The position numbers and the translations under genes were made by a program. This document shows, in pieces, positions 1 to 4,996 of a DNA stretch of 17,443 nucleotides (within the stretch, counting starts at the first letter, position 1; every line of letters starts with the position of its first letter). The notes under the pieces are model-generated. The model had not been told where the DNA came from. It did not search any database and saw only the letters and a program-made list of their open reading frames with translations. This DNA is from a virus (taxonomy: Duplodnaviria > Heunggongvirae > Uroviricota > Caudoviricetes), in IMG/VR virus record IMGVR_UViG_2698536519_000009; one strand, written 5' to 3'.

Positions 1-237
1 TCAATAAATCCCATCATTGCGATCAACCTCATCCTTAACCATTGATGCGAGCAGTTCTTCCAGTTTCTGCGCTGATAGCTTTACCTGGTGATCTTCAGCA
101 TCTTCCCGGGCTATTGTGGTTCGCGCAGTGGCTGATTTTGCTGACATCACCACAGGGGGCAGACGGACCATTGAACCATGGCCTCCGGAACAAATAAGGG
201 CAAAAATAACAACCACTATCGAAAGCTCACAAACTAA

Positions 238-451
238 CCGCAGCACGTTCCTGCATACGACGTGTCTGCGGCATAATCCCAATGATTACTCCCTGACAGG
301 ATTTGCAGGCCACTCAATATCAGGTGCAGTTGATGTATCAACACGATTCAACAATACCCGATATTTATTCCATGCCTCCAGCAACGATCTTTCTTCCTCC
401 GTTGCGATTTCCAGATCTACAGCATCCTGCAGTGGCGCAATATACTCACTG
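238..451. repeat. Direct repeat copy A (~215 bp): hairpin plus 3' end of a tfa-type gene
   Basis: Aligns by eye with 1288..1500 at a constant offset of ~1049-1050 with roughly 90% identity. Covers a degenerate copy of the hairpin (238-271) and the last ~55 codons of the Tfa-like ORF. Confidence 0.8.
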
Positions 452-555
452 AATTCCTGGATGTAGAACTGTGTGGTGACGGTCTTCCAGCCATTCGGCT
501 CCTGCTGTATCGAAGCATACCAGGCTATTTCAATATCGCTATGCTGCGGCAGCAT
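286..555 (-). CDS. Short Tfa-like ORF: unrelated 38-aa N-terminus fused to a Tfa C-terminal domain (tfaX-like remnant or small chimeric tail fibre assembly protein)
   Basis: 89-aa ORF. The C-terminal 51 aa ([51 protein letters not shown]) are nearly identical to the Tfa C-terminus; the N-terminal part ([38 protein letters not shown]) is unrelated. RBS AAGGGG sits 5 nt upstream of the ATG. Confidence 0.55.
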
Positions 556-611
556 TTAACCCCTTGTAATTCATCGCCATAATTGATTTAATTCACAAAT
601 AAAACTATAAC

Positions 612-1280
612 ATGGTGAAATCAATGAAAAAAAACACAGATGATGGGGCTAAAATTTACACACCACTTACCCTAAAGCTTTATGACTGGTGGGTTTTGGG
701 AGTATCAAATCGGCTTGCATGGGGATGTCCTACAAAGGAACACCTTCTTCCACACTTTCTGGAACATGTAGGTAACAACCATCTGGATATTGGTGTTGGA
801 ACTGGGTTTTACCTTACTCACGTACCTGAGAGTAGTCTGATATCTTTAATGGATTTGAACGAAGCTAGCCTGAACGCGGCATCTACAAGGGCTGGGGAAT
901 CAAAAATTAAACATAAAATTAGCCATGATGTTTTTGAACCTTATCCCGCGGCGTTACATGGTCAATTTGATTCCATTTCCATGTTTTACCTTCTTCACTG
1001 CCTGCCTGGAAATATATCTACAAAAAGCTGTGTAATACGCAATGCGGCGCAGGCCTTAACTGACGATGGAACTCTATACGGAGCCACAATTCTTGGCGAT
1101 GGAGTTGTGCACAATAGCTTCGGTCAAAAACTGATGCGCATTTACAATCAGAAAGGCATCTTTTCAAACACAAAAGATTCCGAAGAAGGCTTAACACATA
1201 TACTCTCAGAGCATTTCGAGAATGTTAAAACCAAGGTTCAAGGTACTGTAGTAATGTTTTCCGCTTCAGGGAAAAAATAG
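612..1280 (+). CDS. Class I SAM-dependent methyltransferase (small-molecule/protein type rather than DNA methyltransferase); cargo gene
   Basis: 222-aa ORF with Rossmann motif I LDIGVGTG, acidic post-I residue (LMDLNE) and motif II/III-like FDSISMFYLLHCLP. An alternative start at 624 (MKKNTDD...) has better spacing to GGTGA. GC content is clearly below the flanking tail genes. Its position next to tfa fragments recalls the ybcY methyltransferase pseudogene of the E. coli K-12 DLP12 prophage (from memory, unverified). Confidence 0.75.
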   Translation: MVKSMKKNTDDGAKIYTPLTLKLYDWWVLGVSNRLAWGCPTKEHLLPHFLEHVGNNHLDIGVGTGFYLTHVPESSLISLMDLNEASLNAASTRAGESKIKHKISHDVFEPYPAALHGQFDSISMFYLLHCLPGNISTKSCVIRNAAQALTDDGTLYGATILGDGVVHNSFGQKLMRIYNQKGIFSNTKDSEEGLTHILSEHFENVKTKVQGTVVMFSASGKK

Positions 1281-1287
1281 CATCCAA

Positions 1288-1320
1288 CCGCAGCACGTTC
1301 TTGCTTAAGACGTGCTGCGG
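1288..1320. terminator. Stable stem-loop between the convergent methyltransferase and tfa genes (putative bidirectional terminator or RNA-stabilising hairpin)
   Basis: ccgcagcacg / cgtgctgcgg perfect 10-bp stem, extended by tctt/aaga with a one-nt bulge and gctt loop. Lies 8 nt after the methyltransferase stop and 15 nt after the tfa stop. No U-run directly follows on either strand, so intrinsic termination is uncertain. Confidence 0.45.
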
Positions 1321-1500
1321 CATAATCCCAATGATTACTCCCTGACAGGGTTCGTAGGCCACTCAATATCAGGTGCAGTTGATGTATCAACACGGTTCAG
1401 CAACACCCGATACTTTTTCCAGGCTTCCAGCAATGAGGTTTCTTCCTCCGTTGCAATTTCCAGATCTGCAGCATCCTGAAGCGGCGCAATATGCTCACTG
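1288..1500. repeat. Direct repeat copy B (~215 bp): hairpin plus 3' end of tfa
   Basis: Partner of 238..451. Together the two copies bracket the methyltransferase gene and its divergent promoter region. Confidence 0.8.
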
Positions 1501-1919
1501 GCTACCTGCATCAGGTTGTTTTTTGTTTCTTCCGCCTCCCGGATCCGGAACAGTTTTTCTGCTTCTGCATCTTTCACCCAGGTTGTGCCGTTCCACTTCT
1601 GAAACTCCCCTTCCGGCGATAACCAGGTAACATTTTCCGGTAATAAGCCGAGTTCAGAAATAAATAACGCGTCGCCGGAAGCTACGTCATAAACCGTTTT
1701 ACCCCGATGATCTTCAACGAGATGCCACGATGCCTCATCACTGTTGAAAACAGCCACAAAGCCAGCCGGAATATCTGGCGGTGCAATATCGGTACTGTTT
1801 GCTGGCAGACCTGTATGAGGCGGAATATATGCGTCACCTTCACCAATAAATTCATTAGTTCCGGCCAGCAGATTATAAATTTTTATGGTCCGTGCTTGTT
1901 CACTCATTCTGAATGCCAT
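1335..1919 (-). CDS. tfa: Tail fibre assembly protein Tfa
   Basis: 194-aa [57 protein letters not shown]..., strongly resembling the Tfa proteins of E. coli cryptic prophages and lambda Tfa. Translationally coupled to stf. Confidence 0.9.
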
Positions 1920-4900
1920 TATGCAAGCCTCACAATATAGTTAAATGCGATGTTTTTGACGGTGTTTTCCGCGTTACCAGCAGCGTTAACGGTGATGGTG
2001 TGTCCATGTGAACCAATCGCAACGGAGTGCGTATGTGCACCAATACCTACAGTATGTGCATGTGCGCCAGAACTTGCTGCAGTACCAGACAGCGAGTGGG
2101 TATGAGCACCTGCTGACTGTGTCTGAATACGTTGATAATACGATCTACGGGAAGAAGTCCCCGGGCTTACTTGATACTGTGAATCCTGGACATAAGTGAA
2201 CCCACCGCCATCATAAAATGCTAACGCAGAACCGCCGCCTCCTGGCCAACGAATACCATTACCATGAGTATGATCACCGGCAGACCCCGTAGAGCCACTC
2301 AGACTGTGCGTATGCGCCCCGGTGTTATTCGTGGATTTAGTGCCGTAATCAAACGACGATGTGGTTTTCGTCCCCAAATCCGTACTGGATGCGCTGGCGC
2401 TGTGGGTGTGCGATTTAATGCCGTCCTGTTCCTGAGACAATACGGCTCGATCACTGGCGGGCTTGCCCTTAATCGTCCAGCCACGCATATCAGGAATAAC
2501 GCCTGACGGATAAGCCACTGCAAGTTTCGGGTAAGCAGATTTGTCAAAAGTCTGCCCCTGCATCAGGGCATAACCAGACGGAACGGTATCTGATGGCCAC
2601 GGGATTGGTGCACCGACTGGGTAACTTTCTGGTGGAAGATTTTTCGAGGTATAAACTTCTGCCCAGTCTTCCTCAAAACCATAACCGTCTCTTGAAGAAC
2701 GGTAGAACAGACCACCATTTCTGTAATGCGCCTTCATCTGCAGGGTCCGGCAACTTCCGACTCCGGTATAGAAGTTAACCAGAATATAGCTGTCGCCAGA
2801 GCGGGTGACATTGTAAGCGCCTGATTCGGCATTCCAGGGAACGCCACCATCCGCATCGGCATATGTATCCGTTGCCCTTCTGGCAAAAGCAGCCACATGC
2901 GCAGCGGTTAAAGTAATATCTCTGGAACCATCAAACTCAACACCAGAAACCAGTCTTGGCGTTTGCAGCTTTGTTGCTGTTAATGCATTACCGTTCAGAC
3001 TTGCGGACAGTTTGGTTCCAATAATCAGTTCGCCGGTTGCGTTATCAATAGCAACCGGTCTTAATGTATTCCAGCCACCATAAACATCACCTTGATTGGT
3101 AAGCAGCAGGTAAGTTTTAGCGCCATCATTACGCCATAATGCCCCATACTCCCCACCTATCATTCGAATCTGATTACCACCACGCGCTACAATTTCGTCT
3201 GTGGCAAAAAGTTTTTTGCACGACAAGTTATCGTTAACGATTAACGAATGAGACTCATAAAAACCACGCCCACTCTTAAAATCAAGGATAACGTCCGCCG
3301 CGATACATTCAGTCGCTGGATTTGTTGCCCCAAACTTATAGGTCGTATCATTAACAACGAGATCAGCACCAGGTGCGGATATTGACAGGCCATCTTCGAT
3401 AAACGCAAAAACAGGGAAAGCAGCGCCATCAACATAGAACACAGAGCGCAAATCATCGCCCTTATTACTCATCATTATTGAGTGGATGGCTCGTTCATTG
3501 TTTTGATATTGCCAGAACATTCCATAAGCATAACGCCCCCTGTCAGTCCAGCCACCAGGCATAACAAATCCGTTAAACTCGCAGTTATTCATCGGATCGC
3601 CTGCGGTTCGCGTTGCCGTGGTGATAATGACCCTTGATGCCAGTTCGCTTACTGAGCCAGCAGAACGCATAACAACAACAGGGTAATATTTTCCAGATGT
3701 TGCACCTGCAGGAGCGTTAACCCGCACATAACGCATACCACGCTTATCAGCAAAGTCTGTTTTACTGACCGCGTTAATGTTGTTCAGGAAGCGTCCCTTA
3801 TCGGGTATATCAGCGCCGTTCTGGTCTTTCTGCAGACGTTTCTCTGCATTGTCATAGGCTGATTTTACTGCCTTTGGCGTTGCCGCCAGCGTTTCAGACG
3901 TACTGTTGGTCGCACTGCTGAGCTGTACTATCCCCTTTTTCGTCGTACTTGCATCCTCAAGCGCCACGGCGGATGCAATATCCTCTGCCCGTTTTGCCGC
4001 TGTCTCAGCGCGCGTTGCTGCGGATTCCGCCGTACTTTTGCTCTGAGCTGCCGCCGTCGCACTGCCAGCTGCCTCTGTCGCCTTCGTGGATGCCGTCGTG
4101 GCGCTGCCCTTCGCTGCTGACGCCTGTCTGGTCGCCTCATCTTTTGAAGCAGACGCCGATGATGCCGATGACGCCGCCGAACTGGCGGACGATGCGGCAG
4201 CCGTTTTTGAGGATTCTGCGCTGGTCTCCGACGCTTTCGCGTTCGTCTCGGATGTCTTCGCTGCCTCTTTTGAGGCCGCCGCACCCCGTGCCGAGGTGGC
4301 AGCTTCTGACGCCTTCGTGGTCGCTGTGGATGCAGAAGTGGCTGCCGATTTTTGTGATGCTGCGGCATTCGTTTCTGACGTTTTCGCGGCACTGGCGCTG
4401 GTAGCTGCCGCGCTTTTTGATGACTCTGCAGCAGCAGCACTTTTTGATGCCTCAGAGGCTTTTGCTGATGCCGTTCCTGCGCTGGAAAAAGCCTCCTGAG
4501 CCGACGTCGCGGCCTGTCCGGCTGACGTGCTGGCTGCACGTGCTGAGCCTGCAGCATCAGTCGCATGGGTTGCCGCCTCACGGGCTGATGTGCTGGCATC
4601 GCCGGCTGACTTCTTCGCGGCTGCCGTGTTCTGTGCCACTGCGGACGCGTTACGCGCCACCTCTTCCACCATCTGCTCAAAGCGGCGCAGTGCCTCCGGT
4701 CGGACATCATCCTCCGTCATGGCACCGAGAAAATCATTCAGCGTACCTGGTCTGGAACCTTCATAGACGGTAATGGTCCCGGCATGTGAAGGCGGAAAAC
4801 CTTCAACCAGCAGGGTGACGCTGTACTGACCATGCTCAACATCCATGCTGTAACGTCCGGCTTCATCCGGATTTTCAGAGGCCACCGTGTTCACCACCAC

Positions 4901-4996
4901 CGTGCTGCTGGTTCGTCTGGCCTTCAGCACAATGGTGCAGTTCTGTACTGGTTTTCCTGTGCCATCTTTAAGCACGCCAGAAATTTTTACTGTCAT
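1919..4996 (-). CDS. stf: Side tail fibre protein Stf (mosaic: conserved N-terminal domain, Ala/Ser/Thr-rich repeats, divergent central domain, conserved His-rich C-terminal domain)
   Basis: 1025-aa ORF. N-terminus [28 protein letters not shown]... and C-terminus ...[40 protein letters not shown] match lambda Stf from memory, as does the [24 protein letters not shown] motif. Stop TAA overlaps the tfa ATG (TAATG). Confidence 0.9.

Follow-up and report, generated by a model that had tools for sequence, protein, structure and literature searches.

The 17,443-nt stretch of viral DNA analysed here (IMG/VR record IMGVR_UViG_2698536519_000009, assigned to Caudoviricetes), which we denote the window, covers the tail end of a lambda-like prophage. 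Our detailed analysis covered the side tail fibre gene stf, the tail-fibre assembly gene tfa and the region beyond them; the remaining large minus-strand open reading frames (ORFs) of the window are known from the ORF list. On the minus strand, stf is followed by tfa and a hairpin. A gene for a class I S-adenosylmethionine (SAM)-dependent methyltransferase then faces tfa from the plus strand, and beyond it lie an 89-amino-acid (aa) Tfa-like ORF on the minus strand, another hairpin and what is left of a DUF4376 pseudogene. The tfa product aligns to lambda Tfa along all 194 aa with few differences. An identical locus in Escherichia coli chromosomes lies beside yciE and an ompW that is truncated, on the downstream side of the trp operon, and its annotation places lom and J further along. 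We find that the region around the methyltransferase gene is an intact and very common form of the ybcY cassette of the K-12 prophage DLP12, an ordinary arrangement that is already annotated. New in the present analysis are a donor-type locus for the cassette, the chimeric nature of its TfaX ORF (the 89-aa ORF) and a mapped homologous joint with surviving empty sites.

An earlier note on this DNA, made from the letters alone, had described a plus-strand methyltransferase gene between the full tfa and a Tfa-like fragment, more AT-rich than the tail genes and bracketed by direct repeats of ~215 bp and ~90% identity, each holding a hairpin and a tfa 3′ end. This description is accurate: the ORF list and Pfam agree with the gene order, and folding and ORF inspection agree with the repeat content, each copy comprising a hairpin and, on the minus strand, the final 59 codons of a tfa frame. 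The guanine–cytosine (GC) content is 41.1% in the methyltransferase gene, compared with 47.7% in tfa, 52.4% in stf and 54.3% in the whole window. The limits of the repeats can now be set at 236–462 and 1286–1511, with ~89% identity. A repeat finder returned two in-register direct families, one of 29 nt (236–264/1286–1314) and one of 197 nt (266–462/1315–1511), with 89–90% identity, a start-to-start spacing of 1049–1050 and one 1-nt indel at 265. A direct count over the 227 nt of the repeat gave 25 mismatches and 1 indel, and in pairwise alignment the similarity begins abruptly at 236/1286 and ends abruptly at 462/1511.

The segment between the repeats has a different source. Over 825 nt, window 469–1292 shares 91.8% identity with Citrobacter freundii sequence (contigs L016 and L018), and this homology stops exactly at the inner edges of both repeats, so the segment between them is a foreign block. 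The block contains the first ~31–37 codons of a gene of the phrog_3893 family, a 56-bp divergent spacer and the methyltransferase gene. In C. freundii, a 59-bp spacer separates an intact 80-aa version of the small gene from a divergently oriented methyltransferase gene, whose product is 90% identical to that of the window, with umuD-like fragments beyond the small gene and dinI after the methyltransferase. The 89-aa ORF matches phrog_2341 along its full length and is composite: residues 3–37 match phrog_3893 positions 2–36, and residues 31–86 are the Tfa C terminus, matching Pfam Caudo_TAP at profile positions 75–130 of 131 only. Residues 1 to ~37 can thus be assigned to the phrog_3893 part and those from ~31 to 89 to the Tfa part. 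The left junction of the block is an illegitimate fusion of the 5′ end of the phrog_3893 gene to the tfa 3′ end, and the right junction lies 5–6 nt past the methyltransferase stop codon, against the tfa hairpin. The ‘Tfa-like fragment’ of the earlier note is therefore a chimera, with its N terminus taken from phrog_3893, and it lacks the combination of a complete Caudo_TAP domain and a conserved frame. The identical fusion junction occurs in all five TfaX sequences compared (window, K-12, PhiR26_1, Turner and 2G7b), pointing to a single founding event. Towards the 3′ end these sequences vary, with a stop at 61 aa in K-12, a frameshift in 2G7b and an unrelated C terminus past window position 331 in PhiR26_1 and Turner. 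Because these parts differ among loci, TfaX looks like a relic rather than a working gene, and it is probably a non-functional chimera in decay.

The parent of the TfaX N terminus has a context of its own. Intact phrog_3893 genes (79–80 aa) are found in Citrobacter and in Klebsiella phage Kp4882-3, where the gene is preceded by a perfect LexA box (TACTGT-N8-ACAGTA) and overlaps the start of a UmuD-like gene (phrog_3469, E = 1.5e-48; UmuD in the PDB, E = 1e-4). Placement ahead of a UmuD-like gene is seen at L015 3960–4571 and L016 4307–4941, with overlap in the Klebsiella phage. The phrog_3893 gene has the look of an uncharacterised partner, under SOS control, of the UmuD homologues of phages. 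In one genome, the annotation pipeline PGAP places a plus-strand partial ‘DinI family protein’ at ~457–531 (L023 6418–6492), antisense to the TfaX N terminus; a Pfam search gave no DinI signal, and we reject the call. SOS control of the methyltransferase was likewise rejected, there being no LexA box in window 400–700.

The mobility of the cassette is recorded in sites with and without it. We searched with an empty-site query made of the outer flanks only, 86–235 joined to 1512–1661. In 19 genomes the same flanks are separated by exactly one 227-nt repeat copy, with no methyltransferase; the left flank of the window together with the filled site occurs in 243 genomes. The five empty sites that we fetched lie at the same ompW′/DUF4376′ locus, and their repeat copies are left-type at all 19 diagnostic sites in 216–306 and, from 346 on, mostly right-type or of other tfa alleles. 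The cassettes of K-12 and of phages show similarity to the window only from 309 or 331 rightward. Together, these comparisons identify the left repeat of the window as recombinant, a mosaic in which ~236–320 is the resident tfa end and hairpin and ~330–462 is the relic that travels with the cassette. Since the joint between 306 and 346 falls inside uninterrupted homology, it represents a homologous crossover. The repeat sequence itself is the conserved tfa 3′ end, present in lambdoid and P2-like phages of Escherichia, Salmonella, Klebsiella, Yersinia and Cronobacter, and unannotated fragments of it occur in many phages. The repeat is thus not confined to one locus. Of the two origins offered in the earlier note, module exchange by homologous recombination at tfa 3′ ends agrees with the filled and empty sites; a tandem duplication that trapped a foreign gene is not needed, and the founding junctions are illegitimate.

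Table 1. Features of the tail-fibre end of the window (positions in the 17,443-nt stretch).
Feature	Position	Strand	Basis or remark
DUF4376 pseudogene, 3′ relic	1–189	−	PGAP annotation of identical loci: internal stop, N terminus missing
Left direct repeat (hairpin and last 59 tfa codons; recombinant)	236–462		Repeat finder, alignments
Left hairpin, CCGCAGCACGT...ACGTGTCTGCGG	238–271		Folding; identical to phage lambda hairpin
TfaX-type chimeric ORF, 89 aa	286–555	−	phrog_2341, phrog_3893 and Caudo_TAP matches
Foreign AT-rich block, 41.4% GC, 823 bp	463–1285		Homology to Citrobacter
Divergent spacer, 56 bp, with sigma-70-like hexamers	556–611		Promoter scan
Class I SAM-dependent methyltransferase, YbcY family (phrog_2132)	612–1280	+	Probable start 624
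Right direct repeat: hairpin (1288–1320) and last 59 codons of functional tfa	1286–1511
Full-length tfa, 194 aa	1335–1919	−	Pfam Caudo_TAP E = 4.8e-44, profile 1–130 of 131
Side tail fibre gene stf, 1025 aa, upstream of tfa	1919–4996	−	ORF list and near-identical annotated loci/phages

In K-12, DLP12 carries tfaD, a ybcY pseudogene and tfaX in matching order, as its annotation confirms for the methyltransferase pseudogene that the earlier note had cited. Gene order, orientation and the fusion of the small gene to tfa are shared, and window 309–1560 is 97% identical to K-12, rising to 99% (nucleotide) for the methyltransferase gene alone. In DLP12, however, the start region of ybcY has been destroyed by a 2-nt deletion, the remaining frame being open, and tfaX ends early, whereas in the window the methyltransferase is intact and the left repeat runs through the complete tfa 3′ end and hairpin. 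There is nothing unusual about an intact copy. At a nucleotide identity of at least 95%, the gene is present in 3832 of 5426 complete E. coli genomes (intact copies in ~70%), at 4877 places and up to four per genome, and at least 80% of window 1–2000 is carried by 1113 genomes. The intact gene is also present in the cultured or induced lambdoid phages PhiR26_1, PhiR29, PhiR30, PhiR49, PhiR68_2, 2G7b, ev243, Turner and Kati. In the three phage loci that we fetched (PhiR26_1, Turner and 2G7b), the cassette is followed by an alpha/beta hydrolase gene and ompT, with int next in Turner and 2G7b. The cassette adjoins a different tail-fibre module in each of the three, and phage ev243 likewise has it beside a different module. 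In Turner (L012 4480–6280), the cassette is separated from the tfa/tail-fibre genes by a DNA invertase gene together with several small ORFs, which suggests an invertible tail-fibre segment adjoining the cassette in that phage. Phage Ayreon carries a relic of the cassette from which window 584–1245 is deleted: the stub of the small gene and the spacer are joined to the last ~36 nt of the methyltransferase (L014 3501–3850), and then come the hairpin and a short piece of tfa 3′ sequence. In Ayreon, the tail fibre upstream of this relic is of another type. With the cassette absent from phage lambda and the methyltransferase deleted in Ayreon, the gene is dispensable for phage growth.

We propose a history of two steps for this cassette. 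In the first, a single old event, illegitimate recombination would have joined the block on one side to a tfa 3′ end, creating the chimeric TfaX, and on the other to the hairpin that follows tfa, 5–6 nt beyond the methyltransferase stop. The outcome would be a block bracketed by two copies of the unit ‘tfa 3′ end plus hairpin’. The second step is shown by the comparison of filled and empty sites: the cassette spreads or is lost among lambdoid prophages by homologous recombination in the tfa 3′/hairpin homology, the left crossover of the window falling between 306 and 346. For the identity, origin and mobility of the cassette as set out here, we estimate a probability of about 0.75. An in situ tandem duplication is an unlikely origin, although one with an appreciable chance. 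On this view, two sister phage genomes were joined illegitimately, so that the tfa 3′ end and hairpin became doubled and the methyltransferase block was trapped as filler, after which the copies diverged to 89% identity. The direct orientation of the repeats, the single origin of both block junctions and the exact coincidence of the block ends with the repeat edges are what such an event would leave. The repeats, however, are ~11% apart, as against 1–3% between cassette copies of different loci; the substitutions EEERS and AWNKY of the left copy are linked to the cassette and absent from all five full-length Tfa proteins compared; and a mosaic of resident and travelling sequence in the left copy is not what a simple local duplication predicts. 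Duplication concerns the founding event only, for which it could still be true.

The hairpins and the spacer provide the elements from which expression of the methyltransferase can be predicted. The two hairpins fold with −19 to −28.5 kcal/mol and z-scores of −3.1 to −5.0 relative to shuffled sequences. The left hairpin recurs without change in lambda, where it lies between ea31 and ea47, and the post-tfa hairpin of lambda is a variant in which both stem arms are changed yet complementary (CAGCACGT/ACGTG.CTG in the window; CAGAACGTT/AACGTTTCTG in lambda). The lambda hairpins (L013 1918–1951 and 3505–3541) are in direct orientation and bracket ea47 much as the methyltransferase is bracketed here. 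The hairpin may thus be a recurrent module-boundary element in lambdoid b regions. The divergent spacer holds two pairs of sigma-70-like hexamers, TTGATT (583–588) and TATAAC (606–611) separated by 17 nt, and TTAACC (556–561) and CATAAT (578–583) separated by 16 nt. In a genomic SELEX (systematic evolution of ligands by exponential enrichment) study of K-12, the ybcY/tfaX spacer appears among the RpoD holoenzyme sites as TTGATT-17-TATAAC, its entry bearing the flag ‘HNS’ (PMC3946193). The promoter-like hexamers are conserved in the Citrobacter locus, and the 56-bp spacer came with the block. By scan, sigma-70-like sites are no more frequent here than in shuffled sequence, so the scan by itself does not establish a promoter.

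Lambdoid morons are autonomous promoter–gene–terminator units, such as lom and bor. We propose that the cassette is a moron-like cargo unit of lambdoid prophages. With morons and the genes of the lambda b region it shares an atypical base composition (41% GC, compared with 54% for the window) and absence from close relatives, since lambda is without it and so are 19 E. coli prophage sites that match in other respects. It also shares a promoter-like sequence, a stem-loop after the gene and a position at the boundary between tail-fibre genes and the b region, and lambda ea47 faces tfa from the opposite strand as the methyltransferase of the cassette does. Unlike morons, the cassette comes with the relic of a fused gene and has 227-bp repeats on both sides, and for it lysogen expression and a transcript end at the hairpin are predicted only. 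As proposed, the methyltransferase gene, lying opposite the late tail genes with a putative sigma-70-type promoter of its own, would most likely end at the shared hairpin and would probably be expressed in the lysogen independently of tail-gene transcription.

The methyltransferase ORF is open over 222 aa; its real start is probably the ATG at 624 (218 aa), since homologues and the PHROG profile begin at residue 5. Residues 5–222 match phrog_2132 over the entire profile (1–218 of 218, E = 4.2e-157), and RefSeq names the product (WP_000240999.1) ‘class I SAM-dependent methyltransferase’. In Pfam, SAM-methyltransferase profiles score above their cut-offs (Methyltransf_12, 37.5 bits against 30; Methyltransf_23, 29.0 against 27; Methyltransf_25, 27.7 against 27; Methyltransf_11, 24.6 against 21.2), which supports a SAM-binding fold; NCBIfam gave sub-threshold matches only, at 18 bits compared with family-specific cut-offs of 175–390. 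Motif I (LDIGVGTG) and the acidic residue ending β-strand 2 are present, D55, G57, G59, G61 and D77 being invariant across 38 homologues, and the protein has the seven-stranded α/β fold (AlphaFold2 model, predicted local distance difference test score 91.3). The nearest solved structures are phosphatidylethanolamine (PE) N-methyltransferase, JHAMT, phosphoethanolamine methyltransferase and natural-product C-, O- and N-methyltransferases, and a profile search against PDB sequences returned JHAMT (5e-6) and UbiG (6e-4). PmtA (8ys9), JHAMT (7ec0), UbiG (4kdr) and natural-product methyltransferases share the Rossmann fold, motif I and the β2 acidic residue with the YbcY family; enzymes of this type are its best sequence and fold matches, yet the identity is 12–21%, and the YbcY family has strongly conserved particulars of its own in an N-terminal YDWWVL helix and the HCLPG and YN.KGIF.N motifs.

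Conservation within the family is high. The 38 homologues (56–90% identity) have 55 invariant columns, which include motif I, DLN, HD, DS, YLLHCLPG, GAT, HN and YN.KGIF.N and indicate strong purifying selection on the methyltransferase. The family has more than 2000 members at E ≤ 0.001, in Enterobacterales, Aeromonas, Shewanella and Pasteurellaceae. Homologues of 56–65% identity occur in the chromosomes of Salmonella, Enterobacter, Erwinia, Yersinia and Klebsiella, where they stand alone and none of the called neighbours is a phage gene, and an Aeromonas homologue is flanked by insertion sequences. Esterases or alpha/beta hydrolases lie near the methyltransferase in four contexts (phages, Enterobacter, Erwinia and an E. 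coli island), a weak functional lead. The earlier note had reported motif I without a DPPY/NPPY-type motif and judged a DNA N6/N4 methyltransferase unlikely. Both statements stand: a regular-expression search found no (D/N/S)PP(Y/F/W/H) motif in the methyltransferase, and no DNA methyltransferase is among the listed fold or sequence matches. Sequence and predicted structure support a class I methyltransferase of small-molecule type rather than an amino-DNA methyltransferase. As a known defence system the gene was rejected, PADLOC giving just one 12.8-bit match (E = 0.0096).

From fold and context, we infer a cytoplasmic or membrane-associated small-molecule or lipid methyltransferase. In our proposal, the enzyme would most likely methylate a small molecule or lipid in the host cytoplasm or membrane, with DNA, RNA and the tail fibre as unlikely targets, and would serve an accessory or conversion function; this functional part is much less certain than the history of the cassette. 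Several points weigh against the proposal. The hairpin has no U-tract on either strand, so that its terminator role stays putative; no conserved partner gene is present around nine homologues (56–90% identity); the sequences alone do not reveal whether the difference between filled and empty sites reflects gain or loss; and the literature searched yielded no lysogen expression, transcript or phenotype data for the gene. That literature held no functional study of ybcY or tfaX, only a SELEX promoter table and appY promoter-island work. A narrower version, which we regard as improbable, casts the protein as a lysogenic-conversion enzyme with one specific substrate. This could be a membrane lipid (for example, by PE N-methylation, as for PmtA, the best fold match); it could instead be a xenobiotic or carboxylic acid, in which case the nearby esterases or alpha/beta hydrolases might be involved. 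If true, the benefit of such an enzyme to the host would account for an intact copy in ~70% of E. coli genomes.

Other roles fare worse. Service to the tail fibre is very improbable. Under this reading, Stf would be modified or chaperoned by the methyltransferase and TfaX, or the host receptor would be altered by them, with a change of host range or the exclusion of superinfecting phages as the result. The cassette does adjoin stf and tfa, and TfaX keeps the conserved C-terminal segment of Tfa. That segment, however, belongs to a protein that is truncated to 61 aa in K-12, frameshifted in 2G7b and given another C terminus in PhiR26_1 and Turner, and the cassette is found beside unrelated tail-fibre modules. 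The methyltransferase is also on the opposite strand, its homologues have no phage genes among their called neighbours, and lambda and Ayreon do without it. Slightly less probable again is an orphan DNA or RNA methyltransferase guarding phage DNA from restriction or regulating the prophage, given the missing (D/N/S)PP(Y/F/W) motif, best sequence and structure matches to small-molecule and lipid methyltransferases, with no nucleic-acid methyltransferase in the top matches, a length of 218 aa without a target-recognition domain, no meaningful PADLOC match and homologues that are stand-alone chromosomal genes. The cassette resembles the invertible segments Mu G, P1 C and e14 P in having duplicated tail-fibre/tfa 3′ sequences beside fibre genes; those segments have inverted repeats and an adjacent invertase gene, whereas the repeats here are direct, and we reject this assignment. 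In window 1–3000, the only inverted pair is a 14-nt match (86% complementarity, arms 2259 nt apart), and none brackets the cassette; 1–1919 holds no invertase gene, its ORFs being the pseudogene relic, TfaX, the methyltransferase and tfa.

Further observations concern the surrounding sequence. The prophage end is a stack of gene relics, the DUF4376 pseudogene being accompanied by the truncated ompW (flank L001 8572–9189); a Pfam search of the 93-aa ORF at 1–282 gave no match, and DUF4376 was not confirmed in this way. The Rfam family IS009 (RF02111, a candidate E. coli small RNA) matches window 1378–1576 on the minus strand at full length with 225.7 bits, and on the left copy it matches 329–532 (minus strand) with 112.5 bits, just below the gathering score of 117. 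As both matches lie inside tfa/TfaX coding sequence, the family appears to model the conserved tfa 3′ end. A 45-aa RefSeq ‘hypothetical protein’ (WP_001309429.1; 1225–1362, minus strand) extends from the methyltransferase stop across the hairpin to include the tfa stop, and is probably spurious. The N-terminal third of stf (3900–4700) is Ala/Ser/Thr-rich and of low complexity, with 60–67% GC and long spurious ORFs in other frames.

As a genomic feature, the cassette carries little weight: its annotation is already in place for K-12 and thousands of genomes, and the standard picture of mosaic lambdoid phages with cargo genes accommodates it. It is an unusually clean case of the capture and passage of a cargo gene, with filled and empty sites both surviving and with a capture history of one illegitimate founding event, recorded in a chimeric relic, followed by homologous spread via tfa 3′ ends. 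Identifying the substrate of this strongly conserved and extremely prevalent prophage methyltransferase would fill a small gap in the accessory-gene biology of E. coli.

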